DNA of 64,000 bases. Source: Truepera sp. Its GTDB lineage: Bacteria; Deinococcota; Deinococci; Deinococcales; Trueperaceae. This document shows positions 16,763 through 27,030 of the stretch, piece by piece. The stretch spans positions 1,248,001-1,312,000 of the forward strand of contig CBDCKW010000009.1 in the NCBI GenBank assembly GCA_965218435.1, read 5' to 3'. The stretch's first letter is position 1, and each line of letters starts with the position of its first letter. The notes under the pieces are model-generated. The model saw nothing but the letters and a program-made list of their open reading frames with translations, had not been told where the DNA came from and made no database searches. The translations under genes and the position numbers were made by a program.

Positions 16763-18583
16763 GTGGCACTGACTCGGCGTACGTCCGCCCCCGTTGCGGG
16801 TACAGAGGCTCCTGGTGTGCCGACTCGGAGCCTTTATCAGCAGATTCGGCGGGCGCGGCTCTGGCTACCGGTTGCGATCGTCGGAGTGGTGCTGTTGCAA
16901 CAACTTATCGTTGGGCCGCTCGGCGAGGCGAGCTGGCAGGTCTGGGTCAATGTAGCTTTTTACAGCACGCTAGGGCCTGCGGTGACGTTTTTGACGCTCA
17001 ACTGGATCGCGTCAGAGGTGCGCCGCCGCGAACAAGCGCAGGGGGAGCTGCGCGGGCTTTACGACGCGCTCAGTCACTCGCACGCACTGTTAGGCCAGAT
17101 TCAGCGGGTGACTGAGCAATTTGCGCTCTCGACCGACCTTAATTCGGTGCTTGTCGTCGCCACCGAAGGCTTGACCGAGGTCACCGGGGCCGAAGGTACC
17201 GCGATCTTGTTCGGCGAACGTGGGCTTAAAATCAGCCATACCCACGGCTTAAGTGCTGAGCAAGAGCAAGTTGCCACAGCCCGCCACGAAAAGCTGCGTC
17301 AGGGTCAGCCGCTAAACGAAGGGCTAGCGGAGGGTTGGGCGCTGTCTTTTTCACTTTATTGGGGGGGGAAGCTCGAGGGCAGCGTACATAGCTTTTTCCC
17401 CGCGCCGCCGAGCCCCGAAGCGCGGGAGAGCTTCGCTATCTTAGCCAACGAGTTTTCTGCCGCTGCCGAAGCAAGTCGTAGCCGCACCAAAGACCTGCTG
17501 ACTCTTTTTGAAGCCGACCGCAGCATCCGGGCCGAAGGGAACTTGGGCCGTTTGTTGGAAAAGCTCTTGACGCAGATGATGCAGCGGACCGACGCCCGTG
17601 TCGGCGGCGTCTACCTGGCTGATGAGGACGGCCTGTTGCAACTTCGCGCCGTACGAGGCGTTCGTGAACCTGCGCTCCGCCTCGGTGAAGGGTTTGTCGG
17701 TCAAGCCGCCGCTGAGCCGCAAGTCGTGCATCAGCTGGCCGCCGCCGAGCAGCAGGGGCCGATTCTTAGTGCAGCCCAGAGCGCCGTAACCTTACCGCTC
17801 GTCAGCGAAGAGGGGCTTTTGGGCGTCGTCGTGCTGGGTCACCCCGAAGCCGCGCACTTCAGCGAAACGAACTTGCCGTTTCTCAACCTACTCGCCGGTC
17901 AGGTCAGTTTGGCAGTTCGGAACGCGAGGGCCTATTTGCAATCCGAAGAGTTAGCCATCGCCGAAGAACGTGCCCGGATTGCCCGCGAAATCCACGACGG
18001 CGTGGCGCAGGCCCTCGCCTTCAGCGCCCTTAAACTCGATTTGGTGGCGCGGCTTTTTACCGGCGAAGCGCCGCAACCTGACAAAGCGACCAGCGAGCTG
18101 CGCACCGCGCAAGCAACGATTCGGGAAAGTATCCGCGAGGTGCGGCGTTCGATCTTTGCACTTCGGCCGATTGACCTAGAGCGGCACGGGTTTCTCGAGA
18201 CCATCCGCCGCTACTGCTCTGACTTTGAAGAGCAAAACGACCTCGGCGTGAGCTTGACCGTAGACGGTACGCCGCAACTCAGCGCTAAATCCGAAGCGGT
18301 ACTCTTCCGCATTTTTCAAGAAGCGATGAACAACATCGCCAAGCACGCGCACGCCCGTTACGTGTTTGTGACCGTCGGGCAAACCTGCGACTCATGTGGC
18401 TACGTCGAAGTCCGCGACGACGGTCAGGGTTTTGACCCTGTTACTGTGTCGGACAGAGTGACGAGCGCCGGGGGCTTAGGTCTCAAGCAGATGCGTGAAC
18501 GGGTACAGGCCAGGGGCGGGCAGTTTGAGGCAGTTTCAGAGCCGGGTGGTGGGACGCGGGTTTACGCGTCAGTGCCCGAGTAA
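16763..18583 (+). CDS. Membrane GAF-domain sensor histidine kinase (HisKA_3, NarX-like)
   Basis: Two TMs, GAF region, H-box EERARIAREIHDGVAQ, N-box QEAMNNIAKHA, DDGQGF and GLGL.QMRER. Confidence 0.95.
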   Translation: MALTRRTSAPVAGTEAPGVPTRSLYQQIRRARLWLPVAIVGVVLLQQLIVGPLGEASWQVWVNVAFYSTLGPAVTFLTLNWIASEVRRREQAQGELRGLYDALSHSHALLGQIQRVTEQFALSTDLNSVLVVATEGLTEVTGAEGTAILFGERGLKISHTHGLSAEQEQVATARHEKLRQGQPLNEGLAEGWALSFSLYWGGKLEGSVHSFFPAPPSPEARESFAILANEFSAAAEASRSRTKDLLTLFEADRSIRAEGNLGRLLEKLLTQMMQRTDARVGGVYLADEDGLLQLRAVRGVREPALRLGEGFVGQAAAEPQVVHQLAAAEQQGPILSAAQSAVTLPLVSEEGLLGVVVLGHPEAAHFSETNLPFLNLLAGQVSLAVRNARAYLQSEELAIAEERARIAREIHDGVAQALAFSALKLDLVARLFTGEAPQPDKATSELRTAQATIRESIREVRRSIFALRPIDLERHGFLETIRRYCSDFEEQNDLGVSLTVDGTPQLSAKSEAVLFRIFQEAMNNIAKHAHARYVFVTVGQTCDSCGYVEVRDDGQGFDPVTVSDRVTSAGGLGLKQMRERVQARGGQFEAVSEPGGGTRVYASVPE

Positions 18584-19437
18584 ACCTGCTTAGTCAAAAG
18601 TTTTAGTTTTGTTTCCCACAAACGGCTAAAAGGTGGCAAAAAGATTAAAGCAAGCGCCAAAAGTGTTACAAACGTGGCGGGAAGTTGTGAGTCTTCGGTT
18701 GGTGGCGAAAACAGCTGAACAGGTGCGTTAAAAAGCGCGTGTACACCTACGGCAATAAAAAGATTCTGTGTCTTGACGTAGCATAAAGCAAAAATAATGC
18801 CCGCAACACCTGTGGCCAATAGCCAAAGTGGTAGTTCAGACCAACCGTGGGTTTCTACGATAAGCTGCTTCGGGATATGGATAAGCGCAAAAAATACTTG
18901 CGAAGTTACCAAAGCTGTCAACAACAGATAACGGATTTTACGGTGGGCTAAAAACAAATAGAGTTGCACAAAAATAAATCCGCGAAAGACGATTTCCTCG
19001 TAGAGCGCGTTGCCTAGAATCTGCGAGACAAATGTACCTAGCACGAAAGTCGGGCCTACTTCTTGCCACGCGCTGTTCCACTGCAACGTACCTAAAACGA
19101 CGAGTTGCCAGATAAGTAGTGCCACTTGAGTCAGTGCCCAGAGCAGCACGGTAAAAATAGCGGCTTTGCGGAGGTAAGATGATAAGCCTAGGTCGCGGAG
19201 CTTTAAGTTGCTAGTAAGTAGGATAAAAATGACGACTAAGAAAGCGGTTGCAGCGTTGTAAAGAGTGTAAAAGTTGAGTAGCCCGTAACTTAGCGTTTCC
19301 GTCACAGTAGCTATGTACTGTGTTGACGTTGGCATGTATATCGGCAAAAGATAAAGAGCGAGAATAGGAGAAAATCCTACGAAAAGTCCGACTATAACGA
19401 AGGTAGGCCAGTTCGTTCTTCTAACATTCTGAAACAT
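18562..19437 (-). CDS. CPBP (CAAX/Abi) intramembrane glutamic endopeptidase
   Basis: EEIVFRG, FALIH and H-ALFN motifs in a multi-TM protein; lower GC than its neighbours. Confidence 0.9.
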   Translation of the reverse strand: MFQNVRRTNWPTFVIVGLFVGFSPILALYLLPIYMPTSTQYIATVTETLSYGLLNFYTLYNAATAFLVVIFILLTSNLKLRDLGLSSYLRKAAIFTVLLWALTQVALLIWQLVVLGTLQWNSAWQEVGPTFVLGTFVSQILGNALYEEIVFRGFIFVQLYLFLAHRKIRYLLLTALVTSQVFFALIHIPKQLIVETHGWSELPLWLLATGVAGIIFALCYVKTQNLFIAVGVHALFNAPVQLFSPPTEDSQLPATFVTLLALALIFLPPFSRLWETKLKLLTKQVYSGTDA

Positions 19438-19463
19438 ACGCGCAGCTTAGGCTTTGTGAACAC

Positions 19464-19492
19464 AAAAAGAAAGAGCCCCGAAAGGGACTCTT
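19464..19492 (-). terminator. Rho-independent terminator of rpmE
   Basis: Minus strand reads AAGAGTCCCT-TTCG-GGGCTCTT then TCTTTTT. Confidence 0.8.
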
Positions 19493-19510
19493 AAGCTCGA
19501 TTTATAAGGC

Positions 19511-19729
19511 TTACTTGCGGTTACGCCGGTACGACTCACCAAAACGCTTTTGAAACTTCTCGACGCGCCCTTCGGTGTCAATAAACCGCTGCTGCCCGGT
19601 GTAAAACGGGTGGTTCCCCGACCACACATCAACGCGCAGTTCGGGTTTGGTGCTGTAGGTCTCCATCACCACTTCGCCGTCACAATAAACTTTGGTGGGC
19701 ACCATTTTAGGGTGAATATCTTTTTTCAT
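19511..19729 (-). CDS. rpmE: 50S ribosomal protein L31
   Basis: MKKDIHP...VDVWSGNHPFYTGQQRFIDTEGRVEKF; start at ATG 19729 behind AGGAGA. Confidence 0.97.
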   Translation of the reverse strand: MKKDIHPKMVPTKVYCDGEVVMETYSTKPELRVDVWSGNHPFYTGQQRFIDTEGRVEKFQKRFGESYRRNRK

Positions 19730-20226
19730 CTGAGTCTCCTTGGGCACGGTCTTAGTCGTGCAAACACACCATTCTAGCAGAAACTTTTCGCGGCTGCCCT
19801 ACCATCACGAACAGGGCCGACATAGCTTAACTGGTAGGAAGCCAGGACCGGACGCATCTACGAGACGATAGACCAAAACGTGTATGTCCGGCGCAGCTGG
19901 AAGACTTGGAATCAGCTTTTCGTCAATCTTAATGTCTGGAACCTTAACGTCTGGAAGCGGATTTTGCCGTGCAGCAGTTGAAGCTTTACGGAGCTTTGGG
20001 AGTGTCTCGGCGTCTAAAACCTGCTAAAAGACACTTTGCAGGTCAGAGGCTCGAGGCTAAGGCCAGCCAGTTTTAAAGTTAGAGGTGTGGCACGGCCGGA
20101 ACGGGTAGTTTGTGCAGCATAAGGAGGCTGTATTCGGGACGATAACCTTTGTCACAAGTTCGGTGAGGTTTATCGCTGCAAGGGTCAAAGCACTCGAGGG
20201 TTTGGCTAGAGAGCCTATAGTGCAGT

Positions 20227-20895
20227 ATGGACGATGTTCTGGTTTTCGACGTTAATGAAACTCTGCTGGACTTGGCCGCGCTCGATGGGCATTTTGAGCG
20301 CATCTTTGGTGACGCTGGTATCCGCACCGAATGGTTTGAAACGATGATTCAGTCGGCGATGTTAGGCATTATTACCGACACCTATCATGACTTCGGGGCG
20401 GTGGCGAAGGGGGCGCTGGAGAGTGTTGCAGCTCGTAAAGACATTACGCTTAAAGAGGCGGATACCCAGGCTGTTTTGAAGCAGATTCGCGCTTTACCAC
20501 CTCACCCCGACGTTGCCGAGGCGTTGTCTCTTTTGCAGAACGCGGGCGTCCGGCTGGCGACCTTGACCAATTCAACGCTCGAGGTCGCCCGCGCGCAGTT
20601 AGACTACGCCGAACTTTCCGGTTATTTTGAACATATCCTCTCGGCGGATACCGTAAAACGTTTGAAACCTGCGTTAGAACCGTATCAGCACGCGGCGGCT
20701 GAGTTGGGCGTCCCAACCTCAGGTCTGAGGCTTATCGCCGCGCACGCTTGGGACGTGGCGGGCGCGAAACGCGCCGGTTGCAAAACGGCGTTTGTGGCGC
20801 GGCCCGGTAAGGTGTTAGACCCGTTGGCACTCCAACCGGATATGACAGGCAGAGATTTATTAGGGGTGGCCCAAAAACTGCTTGCTCTCAGCTAA
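20227..20895 (+). CDS. Haloacid dehalogenase type II
   Basis: FDVNETLLD, LTNS, KPA..PY and AAHAWDVAGA motifs. Confidence 0.93.
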   Translation: MDDVLVFDVNETLLDLAALDGHFERIFGDAGIRTEWFETMIQSAMLGIITDTYHDFGAVAKGALESVAARKDITLKEADTQAVLKQIRALPPHPDVAEALSLLQNAGVRLATLTNSTLEVARAQLDYAELSGYFEHILSADTVKRLKPALEPYQHAAAELGVPTSGLRLIAAHAWDVAGAKRAGCKTAFVARPGKVLDPLALQPDMTGRDLLGVAQKLLALS

Positions 20896-20901
20896 GACGG
20901 C

Positions 20902-21513
20902 TTACCGGCTCGTCAGTACAAGTTTGAGCCCAAGAACTGCAAACGCTACCGAAAAAGACCGCCGCAGCCAGACGATGACTTTGGGTGACCGCACAACGTA
21001 TTGCCGGACTTGGCTTGCCAGAGCGCCGTAAATAGCGAAAACAACGAGGGTTATCAGCATAAACATAAGGCTCAAAAAGAGCAGCGCCGCCAGAGGTGAA
21101 GCCGTGTCCGGCGAAATAGAGAGCGGTAAAAAAGCAAAAAAGAAGAGCGTCAGCTTGGGGTTTAAGACGTTGAGCAACACGCCTTTGGTCACAATCTGCC
21201 ACGCGGTTTGCTCGGGTGCGGCTTCAAAAGACAGCGCACCGCGCTCACGCCACAGCGTCCAGGCGAGATAGAGCAGGTACACCGCGCCTGCAAACTTGAG
21301 CCCTTGAAAAAAAGTCGCGCTCAGTTGCAAAACGAAAGATAAACCGAGAACGCTCGCCAGTAGATGCGGAATGATGCCCAACGTGCAGCCCAACGCTGCT
21401 ACGACACTTGCCCGGAAGCCGTAAAAGAGTCCGCTCGAGACCGTGTAAATGACCCCGGTGCCGGGTATCAGCGCGACGACCAGTGAGGTCAGTAAAAACT
21501 CGGTGCTGAGCAT
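20902..21513 (-). CDS. LysE/RhtB-family amino acid exporter
   Basis: IPGTG, K..GAVYLLYLAW and G.LLNVLNPK motifs. Confidence 0.94.
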   Translation of the reverse strand: MLSTEFLLTSLVVALIPGTGVIYTVSSGLFYGFRASVVAALGCTLGIIPHLLASVLGLSFVLQLSATFFQGLKFAGAVYLLYLAWTLWRERGALSFEAAPEQTAWQIVTKGVLLNVLNPKLTLFFFAFLPLSISPDTASPLAALLFLSLMFMLITLVVFAIYGALASQVRQYVVRSPKVIVWLRRSFSVAFAVLGLKLVLTSR

Positions 21514-21518
21514 GGGCG

Positions 21519-22208
21519 TTATTTGGAACCACTCGCGGCGTAGATGTTCAGCTCAGTTTCGGCGTCGGGGGCGAAAAGCAAGATGTTGTCGCGGACGGCC
21601 TCCAACTGCGCTTGCACCTTTTCCAGCGGTACGCCCGCAGGGGCGTAAGCCACGTAAAGCGCACGGCGGGTGCCTGGAGAAATCGGGGTTCGTGCGTCCT
21701 GACCGGTGATGATTGTGCAGATCACGCTGGCCGCGTCCGTCATCATCATGTCGCCGGGTTTAAGTGTTTTGACGGAGCCGTTCATGCCGGTAAAGGTTTC
21801 GCCGCCCTGGGTGACGTCAAGTGTGAGGGGCAACTCGAGTAAGTCCGCGTCGTGCCCAGCTGTTAGAACGAACGTTTCCAACTCGGCGGCGAAGTTCGCG
21901 TCAACCAGAGGGTTTACGTTCGGGAGTGCTTTACCTTTGTGGACGATAGACTCGAGCTGAAGCTGCACGTGATAGGTGTTGCCGAAGCGTCGGTAGTAGT
22001 CTCGGTAGGCGTTTAAGACCTCGAGTTCTAACAGCTCGGCTCTGGAGAACCCGGCATATTTCTCCTGCAGACGCGCCTCAACTTTTCGTTTGTGCTCATC
22101 TAGCGGGGTTTGGCGTTTTGTGTTGTCTACCTTGCCGACGAGCAACACGCCGACGTGTGCGCCGGGAAAGGTTTTGTGCCAGCGGCTTGTAACCTCGAGT
22201 TGAATCAT
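21519..22208 (-). CDS. Stand-alone B3/B4 (PheRS beta editing-like) domain protein
   Basis: AYRDYYRRFG, LPNVNPLVD, GHDAD, GGETFTGMNG, GDMMMTD and RTPI segments follow the B3/4 layout. Confidence 0.85.
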   Translation of the reverse strand: MIQLEVTSRWHKTFPGAHVGVLLVGKVDNTKRQTPLDEHKRKVEARLQEKYAGFSRAELLELEVLNAYRDYYRRFGNTYHVQLQLESIVHKGKALPNVNPLVDANFAAELETFVLTAGHDADLLELPLTLDVTQGGETFTGMNGSVKTLKPGDMMMTDAASVICTIITGQDARTPISPGTRRALYVAYAPAGVPLEKVQAQLEAVRDNILLFAPDAETELNIYAASGSK

Positions 22209-22254
22209 GCAGCTCCCTCTCGCGCAGCCCAGCTGCTGCGTTTTCGGAGCTTAC

Positions 22255-23106
22255 CTAACCCAAAACTGCGCTGTCTTGTACGGGGTTGCTACCTTGATAT
22301 TGACCCGGCGTATAGCCCCACAACCGTTTGAACCAGCGCGTCAGATGGCTCTGGTCGGTAAAGCCTGTGAGCAGCGCGACCTCGGCGGGCGTTTGCCCTA
22401 AAGCTAACAGCTCTTTTGCGCGCCCAATCCGCACCTGCCGGAGGTAGGCGTGCGGCGGCACCCCGACGGTTTTACAAAAAACCCGGACGAGATGGTAACG
22501 GCTGAGCTGCGTAAGCTGAGCCAAATCTCCCAGCGAAACGGCCTCGGCGTAGTGGCGCTCGAGGTAACCCTTGACTTGCGTCACTGCGCGGGGTTCTCGG
22601 CCTGTAGCCGCGACGGGTGGCGGGTCGTCGGCGTGGCGACTGACGAGTTGCGCCAACACATCTAAAAGATGCGTTTCTTGCTCGAGGCGAGATGCGGATA
22701 TTTCTAACCGGCAGTGTAAGCTGTAAAGTTCCCGTGCTAAAGCGTCATCGTTAATCACGCCCGACTGAAAAAACGGCAGGTCACGCGGCTTAGCAGCGAC
22801 CTCGGTGGCAACGCGCCCGAGCGTAGCAGCGTCAAGGTAAAACATGCGGTAGCTCCAGCCTTCGGGTACGGCGGGCTGTCCGGTGTGAACCTCGCCGGGA
22901 ACGCACAAGTTGACGTCCCCGGCTGCAGCGACGACGTTCTCGCCCCGGTAAAAAAAGCCCAACGCGCCCCGCTCGAGCACGCCCACAGCGTAGCGTTCAT
23001 GTGTGTGTTTGGGGAAAAATTGCGTAACATTTTCGGCGCGGAGTAGCTCGAGGTTGCCAAGGTCTGGGATACGCCACAGCTTGGTCTTTGGAGCTTGAAG
23101 GTTCAC
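22255..23106 (-). CDS. AraC-family regulator with cupin sensing domain
   Basis: FPKHTHERY, PGEVHTG, and C-terminal double HTH (GFTDQSHLTRWFKR.WGYTPGQY). GTGA overlap with the moeA stop. Confidence 0.96.
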   Translation of the reverse strand: MNLQAPKTKLWRIPDLGNLELLRAENVTQFFPKHTHERYAVGVLERGALGFFYRGENVVAAAGDVNLCVPGEVHTGQPAVPEGWSYRMFYLDAATLGRVATEVAAKPRDLPFFQSGVINDDALARELYSLHCRLEISASRLEQETHLLDVLAQLVSRHADDPPPVAATGREPRAVTQVKGYLERHYAEAVSLGDLAQLTQLSRYHLVRVFCKTVGVPPHAYLRQVRIGRAKELLALGQTPAEVALLTGFTDQSHLTRWFKRLWGYTPGQYQGSNPVQDSAVLG

Positions 23107-24335
23107 CTGAGTACGATGACCTCGAGCTTTTCACCCACTCCAATGTCCGTGTGCGGCGGCACGACAGCGAGCGCGTCTGCTAACAGTAGGGAGCGCAGCA
23201 CCCCCGAGCTCTGGTTCCCGGTGCTCGTTGCCACAGTGCGCCCGTCGGCGTCATAACTTAGCGTGACACGGGCAAACGTCTCCTTAAATCCCGCGCCCCT
23301 AAACGGTGTGGCGGCGTAGGCGGGTCTGCGCCGATAGTAGGGGAGAGGTTCGGTGCTCCCTAAAGCCGTAGCTAAAAACGCTTCACCTAAAAGTTTGAAG
23401 ACGACGAGGCTCGAGACCGGATTGCCCGGTAAGCCCAGCAGCGGCAGGTCGCCGTAGCGCCCGAATAACACCGGCCCGCCCGGTTTCATGGCAACTTTCC
23501 AAAAGTAGACGGTGCCTCTAGTAAAGAGCAAATCACGGACGAAATCGTAACGCCCCATCGAGACGCCGCCGGAGGTGAGGAGGAGGTCGAGCTCGAGCCC
23601 CGCCAAGCCAGCCTCTAACAGCTCTAAATCATCTCTCACATTCGGCAAGCGCACCGCCTCGCCACCTGCACTCGTAACGAGCGCGGCGAGCGCGTAGGCG
23701 TTCGAGTTGTAGACCTGCCCCTCACGGAATGATTCGCCTGGTTCAGCAAGTTCGTCGCCGGTCGCTAGAATGCCGATGCGAGGTCGTTTGACGACCGGGA
23801 CTTCGGCGTAACCCATCGCCGCTGCAATCCCGACCGCCGCTTCAGTAAGCCGTTGCCCGCGGCGAAGGTAAACGTCGCCGCGCCGTAAATCTTGCGCTTT
23901 GGGACGGATGTCGCCCCCGCTGGCAGGTTGGCTCAGCGCGACGCGCCCTCCTGACACTTTGGTATGCTCTACCCCGATAATCGCGTCGGCCCCTTGCGGC
24001 ACCGGCGCGCCGGTATAAATCCCGACCGCTTCACCCGGCCCAACTTCGCCGTAAAAAACGCTGCCCGCCGGGATGTCTCCCACAACACGCAGCGTGACGG
24101 GCGTATCCGGGGTTGCAGAGAGCGTATCTGCGGCGCGGCAGGCGTAGCCGTCTAACGCGGAATTGTCTAAGCTCGGATGGTCTACCGGGCTCTCCAAATC
24201 TTGCGCGAGCGTTCGGCTTAGCGCCGTTCCTAACGCGACCCGCTCGGTAGGGAGGGTTGGAGCTTGCTGCTCGAGAGCCCTCAGCGCCTCGGTTACCGTC
24301 AGCTGACTCGGATAGGTCTTACCCTGATACGTCAC
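23103..24335 (-). CDS. moeA: Molybdopterin molybdenumtransferase
   Basis: NSALDGYA, IYTGAPVPQGAD, TGDEL, TSGGVSMG, MKPG and GLPGNPVS motifs. Confidence 0.97.
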   Translation of the reverse strand: MTYQGKTYPSQLTVTEALRALEQQAPTLPTERVALGTALSRTLAQDLESPVDHPSLDNSALDGYACRAADTLSATPDTPVTLRVVGDIPAGSVFYGEVGPGEAVGIYTGAPVPQGADAIIGVEHTKVSGGRVALSQPASGGDIRPKAQDLRRGDVYLRRGQRLTEAAVGIAAAMGYAEVPVVKRPRIGILATGDELAEPGESFREGQVYNSNAYALAALVTSAGGEAVRLPNVRDDLELLEAGLAGLELDLLLTSGGVSMGRYDFVRDLLFTRGTVYFWKVAMKPGGPVLFGRYGDLPLLGLPGNPVSSLVVFKLLGEAFLATALGSTEPLPYYRRRPAYAATPFRGAGFKETFARVTLSYDADGRTVATSTGNQSSGVLRSLLLADALAVVPPHTDIGVGEKLEVIVLR

Positions 24336-24527
24336 CGGACTATGCTACCAACAAGCATGACGGTTTTACTCCTGTTCAAGGAGCGTTCAAACCGCGCACT
24401 TGGGTCAAGTCAAGGCCCAAAATCTTCAATGAAGGTGTCCCAAACTGTGTGCTCGGCGTGAACCTCGCGTCTCTGACAGATTTTTTTGCCTTACACAATT
24501 TGTCCTTATAACTTGTGAGGCACCGCC

Positions 24528-25656
24528 CTAAGTACGGGACAAATCAAAGGAAAAAGGCTTCCTGAGCGAGAATAGCTGTGTGAAAGAATCTCGTGGAAGC
24601 CATTATCAGCATAAGACAAGCCTGAAACAAATACTAGCGGCAAAGTTGCCTATGAATGGAGCAAGGCTGACATGCCTGAGCACGTTGCTACTCGTACTGA
24701 TTCAAGAGAAGACGGTCAACCTAGTAAGTCTGAGCTTAGCATTTCAGGGTAGAGCGGAGCCAGAATCAGCGTACCGTCGCATCAAGCGATTTTTTACAGA
24801 AGTACGCTTAGACAAGGTGAAAGTTGCTCAGTTTATCCTCAACTTGCTACCACCACCGCCTTACACCGTCTGCGTTGACCGCACGAACTGGCAGTTTGGC
24901 AGCCTCGACATCAACATTCTAGTGATTGCCATAGCCCATAGAGGTGTTGCTTTTCCTATCGTATGGTCGTTTCTGAATAAAGGTGGAAATTCATCTAGTG
25001 AAGAACGTATCAGCCTGCTCCAATGTTTTTTCGAGCTTATAGCCTCCAAAGACGTAGCGTTTTTCTTGGCTGATAGGGAGTTTATCGGAGTAACCTGGAT
25101 TAACTATCTGGATAAACGCCAGGTTCCTTTTGCCATTCGTATCCGTAAAGACAGCCTATGTGACAACTGGTGTCCCGTTCGTGCGCTTTTCGCCCACTTA
25201 GCTATAGGCGAACTCAAGGTTCTAAACAATAGCTATGGCTTTTACGGCTGTAACTTGCGTGCCGCTGGTATGAAGCTCTCTGGTAGCGATTACCTCATAG
25301 TTGTCACCAACCGTGCGCCTGCTCAAGCCTTTGTGGTTTACAAGCGTAGGTGGGAGATCGAAATGCTTTTTTCCGCCTTGAAAACAACCGGCTTTGAGCT
25401 TGAAGCTAGCCACCTTACTCGGCTTTATAAACTCGATACCCTTTTTACCCTCTTGGCTCTGGCTTTTACCTGGGCGCATCATGTAGGTGAATGGCTCCAC
25501 GACAGCAAACGAAAGCTTCTGCGTATCAAGTCTCACCTACGCAGAGAAAAGTCTTTCTTCCGTCACGGTCTTGACTATCTCAGGCATCTGCTTAAGAATC
25601 TACACCTCAAGCATGACGACCTGCTTCTCTGTATTCACTTTTTGTCCCGTACTTAG
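24528..25656 (+). mobile_element. Intact IS4-family insertion sequence, 1129 bp
   Basis: Perfect 16-bp TIR CTAAGTACGGGACAAA / TTTGTCCCGTACTTAG and perfect 9-bp TSD GGCACCGCC (24519-24527 and 25657-25665). Confidence 0.96.
24580..25656 (+). CDS. IS4-family DDE transposase
   Basis: VDRTNW, ADREF and YREK motif YKRRWEIE.LF..LK; the stop codon lies in the right TIR. Confidence 0.96.
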   Translation: MKESRGSHYQHKTSLKQILAAKLPMNGARLTCLSTLLLVLIQEKTVNLVSLSLAFQGRAEPESAYRRIKRFFTEVRLDKVKVAQFILNLLPPPPYTVCVDRTNWQFGSLDINILVIAIAHRGVAFPIVWSFLNKGGNSSSEERISLLQCFFELIASKDVAFFLADREFIGVTWINYLDKRQVPFAIRIRKDSLCDNWCPVRALFAHLAIGELKVLNNSYGFYGCNLRAAGMKLSGSDYLIVVTNRAPAQAFVVYKRRWEIEMLFSALKTTGFELEASHLTRLYKLDTLFTLLALAFTWAHHVGEWLHDSKRKLLRIKSHLRREKSFFRHGLDYLRHLLKNLHLKHDDLLLCIHFLSRT

Positions 25657-25758
25657 GGCACCGCCTCATGATAGACTCTAGTTGCGCGACGAATAAGAGC
25701 GATATATTACGCAAGCCAAGCATAGGGCACGTTTCGGCGCTGCTTTGGAGGGAGAACG

Positions 25759-27030
<1,272 letters not shown>

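Follow-up and report, generated by a model that had tools for sequence, protein, structure and literature searches.

A conserved AraC-B3/4-exporter cassette carrying a distinct subfamily of stand-alone B3/4 proteins in Truepera

Introduction

The B3/4 domain is the editing fold of phenylalanyl-tRNA synthetase (PheRS), and transporters of the LysE/RhtB and EamA families function generally in export, those of the LysE/RhtB family acting on amino acids and their analogues. The closest described systems are summarized here from the available portions of the reports cited. CtdA, which defines the CtdA-1 clade of stand-alone B3/4 proteins, is a canavanyl-tRNA(Arg) deacylase (PDB 9f7e, 9mkl; PMC10018355, PMC12449066) that is controlled by a guanidine riboswitch or linked to canavanine catabolism. 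The CtdA mutations Y104F, N105D, E118Q and E191V abolish editing (10.1101/2024.11.30.626143), as do N105A and G116H/W (PMC12449066). Asn105 is the one catalytic residue common to CtdA and bacterial PheRS. Archaeal and eukaryotic PheRS editing domains are described as lacking the bacterial catalytic motifs (10.1101/2024.11.30.626143). CtdA-2 is a divergent stand-alone B3/4 protein of undefined substrate from Chloroflexi and Bacillota (PMC12449066). In the AerA/AexA and AerB/AexB pairs of B. subtilis, an AraC-family protein activates an EamA exporter whose activity gives protection from toxic amino acids and their analogues (PMC11005379, 10.1101/2025.03.07.642037). The compounds that AexA transports out of the cell under control of its AraC regulator are Ser, Ala, beta-Ala and 2,3-diaminopropionate (PMC11005379).

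Here, we describe a locus of Truepera sp. that combines features of these systems. As in the B. subtilis pairs, an AraC protein with a cupin domain adjoins an amino-acid exporter, although activation is suggested here by a conserved element. The available portions of the B. subtilis reports describe no editing-domain gene, the exporter here is LysE (EamA in relatives), and the likeness considered here is one of layout. The B3/4 protein resembles CtdA in standing alone, in length and in fold, including the long helical insertion, but it is 15-18% identical, carries replacements of Tyr104, Asn105, Ser108, Gly116, Glu118 and Glu191, has fewer basic rim residues, belongs to a separate clade and is under putative AraC control. 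It shares with CtdA-2 its character as a divergent stand-alone B3/4 protein, and with the B3/B4 region of the PheRS beta-subunit the core fold; in contrast to the latter, it is free-standing and has no equivalents of Asn254, His265 and Glu334. The locus is a conserved, probably co-regulated cassette of known kinds of parts (CtdA; AerA/AexA-type AraC-exporter pairs) with a distinct B3/4 subfamily. The initial annotation had named it a candidate for an undescribed system. This was overstated, because each layer has a precedent (CtdA; AerA/AexA), a CtdA clade of undefined substrate already appears in PMC12449066, and two subfamily members, the YHV..QLES proteins of Methylomusa (A0A348AEK8) and Sporomusa (A0A259UYM4), are already in the alignment of that paper. 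In a literature search that took in few subscription papers, we found no description of an AraC-B3/4-exporter cassette or of the element described below, and the available text of PMC13149037 mentions neither B3/4 nor CtdA.

Results

Organization of the locus

The cassette lies on the minus strand of the window, the 64,000-nucleotide stretch of DNA that was analysed (Table 1). Open reading frames and Pfam matches agree with the three co-oriented, closely packed genes of the initial annotation: 46 bp separate araC from the B3/4 gene, and 5 bp separate the B3/4 gene from lysE. The B3/4 protein is free-standing, with its own start and stop codons, and scores 41.4 bits against Pfam B3_4 (cut-off 29.3). 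The exporter belongs to the LysE family (Pfam LysE, 103.5 bits); it reaches 103.1 bits with the RhtB homoserine exporter model NF007812, under the cut-off of 209, and 21 bits with a lysine-exporter model. Orthologues of the AraC protein (58-80% identity) stand ahead of B3/4 and/or LysE genes at other loci. The GC content of the cassette is that of its surroundings, and PADLOC gave no match there. The host genome encodes one PheT, together with this single stand-alone B3/4 protein. This PheT looks intact, with all of its Asn, His, Gly and Glu editing motifs in place, so a backup function for a defective PheRS was rejected.

Table 1. Features of the cassette and its flanks, in window coordinates.
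Feature	Position	Strand	Basis and remarks
L-2-haloacid-dehalogenase-type HAD	20227-20895	+	TIGR01428 above cut-off; convergent neighbour, outside cassette
LysE-family exporter, 203 aa	20902-21513	-	Pfam LysE; RhtB-type models closest
Stand-alone B3/4 protein, 229 aa	21519-22208	-	Pfam B3_4; CtdA fold; YHVQxQxES / F..E / LTAGHD subfamily
RBS-like GAGAGGGAG ahead of B3/4 ATG	22213-22221	-	Read from sequence
-10-like hexamer TAAGCT	22248-22253	-	19 bp after 17-bp element; TA[ACG][AG][CT]T pattern of cassette loci
Conserved 17-bp element GCAACCCCGTACAAGAC	22273-22289	-	araC 3'-end alignment; within araC 3' end, read there as N-P-V-Q-D; putative AraC operator overlapping -35 position
AraC-family activator, cupin ligand-binding domain and HTH, 283 aa	22255-23106	-	Pfam AraC_binding and HTH_18; GTG start
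moeA	23103-24335	-	Pfam MoeA; upstream neighbour, outside cassette; may supply read-through transcription of araC

The cassette had also been described as attached to moeA. The moeA stop and araC start do overlap, as GTGA at 23103-23106, but the adjacency is confined to the same genus and appears incidental. It recurs there in G005 (27-bp gap, ATG start) and in G004, which has lost araC and retains only a remnant of the B3/4 gene, and moeA was seen beside none of the other cassette loci; a moeA link was accordingly rejected as part of the cassette. On the other flank, the HAD stop codon lies 6 bp from that of lysE. We rejected this gene as an analogue hydrolase, because it matches L-haloacid dehalogenases and is absent beside the cassette at other loci. 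A lower-GC ORF of 358 aa between moeA and isocitrate dehydrogenase (window 24580-25656, plus strand) resembles a transposase gene.

Conservation and spread of the cassette

A profile built from the alignment of the B3/4 subfamily, with members counted at E < 1e-50, showed that 18 of the 364 genomes searched in the window's phylum, Deinococcota, carry the subfamily. An AraC gene lies within 1.5 kb upstream in all 18 carriers and an exporter gene accompanies it in 16 (LysE in 9, EamA in 7), though these genomes are kin and represent a few events, not 18. Eight of the nine LysE-bearing loci have the same gene order as the window, and the ninth (G012) is arranged LysE-AraC-B3/4; an internal stop interrupts LysE in one genome (G351). 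The seven AraC-EamA-B3/4 loci, of which a Deinococcus aetherius plasmid is a named example, carry a different AraC with about 40% identity (Pfam checked at four of the seven). One carrier has AraC-B3/4 only (G170), and one has AraC-DUF3291 with a broken B3/4 gene (G060). The trio also extends beyond the phylum, to two records from Chloroflexota and two from Cyanobacteria, and one Acidobacteriota record has AraC-B3/4. Across nine trio loci, the three genes vary together in their pairwise identities (Spearman 0.65-0.81, 36 non-independent pairs). The trio association, whose absence was one part of the refuting condition set in the initial annotation, is therefore conserved across phyla and exceeds chance, and the exporter is exchangeable between two unrelated families, LysE and EamA.

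Individual loci have further neighbours. In one record, an Lrp regulator and a tryptophanase/tyrosine-phenol-lyase-type gene lie upstream of the cassette (L017:1642-3685). An Aeromonas plasmid with a class 1 integrase gene carries aac(6')-Ib4 behind it and, immediately after that, a 56% identical LysE gene (L348:4001-4615), a position consistent with an integron cassette.

A promoter-like element in the araC 3' end

Alignment of araC 3' ends showed a shared element, GCAAnnGCGTACAAGAC, followed 18-19 bp on by the hexamer TA[ACG][AG][CT]T. Element and hexamer are present at 14 of 14 cassette loci, the same 14 from which the pattern was derived. At five of these, the element lies in non-coding DNA past the araC stop codon, which indicates that it is conserved as DNA, independent of reading frame. 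A scan of 166 other upstream regions gave seven matches of at least 15 bits, and shuffled sequences reached 14.5; the seven comprise two duplicates of training genomes, L022, L032, the identical pair L023/L101, and L134, which has no hexamer. In L023 and L101, the element persists about 100 bp upstream of B3/4 with no detectable araC, which suggests decay of the regulator. The host genome contains 27 sites of at least 15 bits, and only the cassette site has the hexamer downstream. At a rearranged locus with the order LysE-AraC-B3/4 (L039), one copy of the element precedes LysE and another precedes B3/4. A variant of the element also stands ahead of the downstream gene in all nine loci that carry the second type of AraC.

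Class II activation by AraC proteins works at the -35 position. Together, these observations point to a putative AraC-activated promoter in the araC 3' end, which would drive both the B3/4 and exporter genes upon AraC binding. The inducible module proposed in the initial annotation is supported to this extent: the trio is conserved, and the common promoter-like element indicates that AraC governs both genes. Riboswitch control was rejected, because Rfam gave no match in window positions 18000-27000. A scan with the sigma-70 consensus returned no promoters, and the count of terminator-like sites (8, versus 6.4 in shuffles) was uninformative.

Fold, pocket and phylogeny of the B3/4 protein

The structure model of the B3/4 protein (pLDDT 92.7) includes helices 35-50, 56-59, 63-73 and 80-91, in keeping with the CtdA topology and its long helical insertion. 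The comparison with CtdA and PheRS suggested in the initial annotation identified CtdA 9f7e as the best match (TM 0.78, Z 22.0, rmsd 2.8, 216 residues aligned), above all PheRS matches (Z of 17 or less; 14-17 for bacterial entries). The ESM Atlas gave only B3_4 clusters, and a profile search of PDB sequences found nothing significant.

Residues were mapped from the sequence register to 9f7e (E 0.11), a mapping that rests on alignments and is consistent with those of the family; it is less secure around residues 76-91, where the register crosses a short deletion. By this mapping, Tyr104, Asn105, Ser108, Gly116, Glu118 and Glu191 of CtdA become Asn105, Phe106, Glu109, Ala117, His119 and Tyr188. 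Cys166 and Gln173 correspond to Cys164 and Gln170 (the latter slightly uncertain owing to a one-residue gap), which are kept in 119 of 119 near homologues; the same positions hold Ser in 68 and Pro in 87 of 106 distant representatives. Phe106, Glu109, Ala117, His119 and Tyr188 occur in 193/193 family sequences, and Tyr79, His80, Gln84 and Glu86 in 192/193. The distant representatives retain Gln84 (106), Glu109 (104), His119 (100) and Phe106 (99). The invariant Phe at the catalytic position contrasts with Asn in 32 of 32 CtdA-1-like sequences. CtdA-2, as presented in the available text of PMC12449066, has Asn105 and Gly116 and no Cys166, and the present family, with Phe106, Ala117 and Cys164, is opposite at all three positions. 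Segment 164-176 has 1.2 basic residues instead of 3.9, and segment 84-91 has 1.0 instead of 2.3; the overall count in residues 73-93 is similar (4.75 versus 5.25).

The initial annotation had noted YHVQLQLES in place of a PS.EAL.RR-like motif, and in alignments this segment (residues 79-87) does fall opposite the PS.EAL.RR-type stretch that other stand-alone B3/4 proteins have. Its proposal of a divergent editing pocket is likewise supported by the replacements. Because both acidic floor residues are gone, Asn105 and much of the basic rim are replaced, and the protein falls outside the CtdA-1-type clade, the pocket appears remodelled and canavanine is an unlikely substrate. As Asn105 is replaced by Phe, we infer tRNA deacylation rather than take it as given.

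In quick trees, the family forms a clade (SH-aLRT 96-97) apart from the CtdA-1-type clade (95-96), the latter being represented by WNWRQ-type proteins from collected loci rather than by characterised enzymes. The family is sister to a Desulfobacterota group (98-99). Three bacterial proteins that we assign as CtdA-2-like (YRPSSEALLRR/VSDSERT) form a group of their own, with weak support (83) for the deep order in trees built from non-archaeal rows. The Desulfobacterota sister group (L275-L289) consists of further stand-alone B3/4 proteins, with the motifs GYECPLPxHLKRT / HF.AE / CQGAD or FQGPD, that also lack the catalytic Asn; its neighbours are varied, and two members lie beside ORFs that resemble amino-acid dehydrogenases by eye.

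B3/4 genes outside the cassette

Most members of the family have neither AraC nor an exporter beside them. Among the best 80 genome loci, AraC is present at nine and the trio at eight, and AraC is present at two of 80 metagenome loci, many of which are short. Contexts read from ORF lists gave a similar picture for other phyla: family members occur in 18 of 401 sampled Chloroflexota genomes (cassette in 1/18, the centre genome of the sample), in 7 of 301 Desulfobacterota genomes plus one broken copy (cassette in 0/7), and in 1 of 301 Cyanobacteria genomes, again the centre genome. The immediate neighbours of 193 distinct members fall into 209 clusters, the largest being AraC (16), LysE (11), TtuA (7) and EamA (7). 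No recurring pathway emerged from 101 neighbour ORFs, which were chosen from the first 150 of 179 references and belong to scattered families, and no synthetase fusion was found among longer proteins, which is weak evidence. Within the window's taxonomic family (128 genomes), the AraC orthologue is present in 11, two of which have LysE directly behind it and no B3/4, and LysE is present in 20, eight of which have neither partner within 1.5 kb. AraC-LysE pairs without B3/4 and mostly solo B3/4 genes identify AraC-exporter as the core pair and B3/4 as an add-on to this common pair that lives alone elsewhere.

At seven related Chloroflexota loci (L038, L049, L050, L051, L078, L088, L089), the gene immediately behind a ttuA-like tRNA thiolase gene is a family member, mostly with an AhpC/TSA gene after it; these seven may stem from one insertion. 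In a single case, a YbaK/ProXp-type tRNA_edit gene lies right behind the family member (L026:2255-2743).

A second B3/4 lineage in the same layout

Searching with LysE led to plasmid records with a different B3/4 lineage, in the order AraC-B3/4-LysE in Pseudochrobactrum and Roseomonas and AraC-DMT-B3/4 in Rhizobium and likewise Ralstonia, where araC is divergent. This lineage matches 163 plasmid records, and its layouts were taken from four of them (L347, L351, L353, L354); a Streptantibioticus record examined alongside has no annotation. It has the motifs YRCASEALLRR / PVAVFD / ARRWTNRQ, keeps Asn105 and groups on the CtdA-1 side of a quick tree. A related element is present in all four plasmid records and is intergenic in Ralstonia. 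By these sequence criteria, a second B3/4 lineage is independently recruited into the same cassette layout. Its presence marks the layout as a recurring module, which supports a functional link and makes the Truepera locus less unique.

Discussion

We lean towards an inducible defence with two layers, directed at an amino-acid analogue or a toxic intermediate of non-protein kind, in which a ligand-activated AraC would turn on both export and tRNA deacylation of a non-guanidino compound. The probable role of the cassette is to shield protein synthesis from an amino-acid look-alike. The AraC cupin domain would bind the compound and activate the promoter at the araC 3' end, where the element is conserved; the exporter, by family of LysE/RhtB type, would lower the cytoplasmic pool of the compound; and the stand-alone B3/4 protein, by its fold an editing domain, would hydrolyse the analogue from mischarged tRNA. 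Invariant Gln84, Glu109 and His80/His119 would most likely stand in for Asn105, placing the water and the ester. The absence of the acidic floor residues (His119 and Tyr188 occupy their positions), together with an RhtB-like exporter, makes a neutral, polar or acidic compound most likely, and a guanidino analogue less so. There are precedents for such a defence (PMC10018355, PMC12449066, PMC11005379). It is supported by the CtdA fold, AraC in 18/18 and an exporter of two unrelated families in 16/18 carriers in the phylum, the trio in Chloroflexota and Cyanobacteria, the frame-independent element with separate copies at L039, recruitment of a second lineage, and a near-invariant pocket across 193 sequences. 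Against it stand the replacement of all four CtdA-essential residues Tyr104, Asn105, Glu118 and Glu191, the reduction in basic residues, the many family members with neither AraC nor exporter, AraC-LysE without B3/4 in two of 11 genomes and, weakly, the lack of synthetase fusions.

The main rival keeps the same regulon and a toxic compound but takes B3/4 off tRNA, where it would bind, sequester or hydrolyse the free or activated compound (adenylate, thioester or lactone). Such a role fits the absence of Asn105 and of the RR/RR basic patches that other stand-alone B3/4 proteins have kept, and it fits the new invariant His/Glu/Gln/Tyr set. We nevertheless consider it unlikely: the basic count in residues 73-93 hardly differs, Cys164 and Gln170 match CtdA in the near clade, archaeal and eukaryotic PheRS editing domains are also described as dispensing with the bacterial motifs (10.1101/2024.11.30.626143), and the gene sits directly behind the tRNA-thiolase gene ttuA in seven related loci. 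A metabolic safety valve of the AerA/AexA kind, relieving an excess of an ordinary amino acid or intermediate (Ser, Ala, Cys, homoserine, norvaline class), where the target of B3/4 would be a near-cognate error and not a toxin from the environment, would suit the range of AexA substrates, the RhtB-like exporter and the absence of recurring catabolic or biosynthetic genes among the scanned neighbour ORFs. The patchy, mobile distribution with decay and loss better fits intermittent external stress than housekeeping, and makes this reading quite improbable.

It is more doubtful still that B3/4 is a functionally unrelated passenger in an AraC-exporter operon. Solo genes dominate (209 neighbour clusters for 193 members), AraC-LysE exists without B3/4 and all cassette members belong to one subclade; yet B3/4 was retained while both regulator and exporter were exchanged, has its own promoter copy after rearrangement (L039), and was recruited independently from another lineage. 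Least probable, to the point of being nearly dismissed, is that the protein deacylates canavanyl-tRNA or backs up PheRS in editing Tyr or m-Tyr, despite CtdA being the best structural match and the host having no other stand-alone B3/4. Against it, both guanidinium-binding acids are gone, the protein lies outside the CtdA-1-type clade, the PheT motifs are intact, and equivalents of PheRS His265 and Glu334 are missing.

It is possible, though we hold this tentatively, that the family represents a third branch, by function, among the stand-alone B3/4 proteins, with a Gln/Glu/His site in place of the Asn site, and that it edits or directly destroys an analogue so far not known to endanger translation; the cassettes would then be a general, repeatedly assembled module whose promoter could be used as an analogue reporter. 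The available text of PMC12449066 leaves open the substrates of divergent CtdA-like proteins. Here, such a protein is accompanied by a sensor and by a promoter element of known position, so that a single reporter screen might reveal the compound and open the substrate question to testing. If the protein is active without Asn105, the single catalytic feature thought common to editing by CtdA and by bacterial PheRS would need revision; a new specificity, if true, would provide an extra editing tool for work with non-canonical amino acids.
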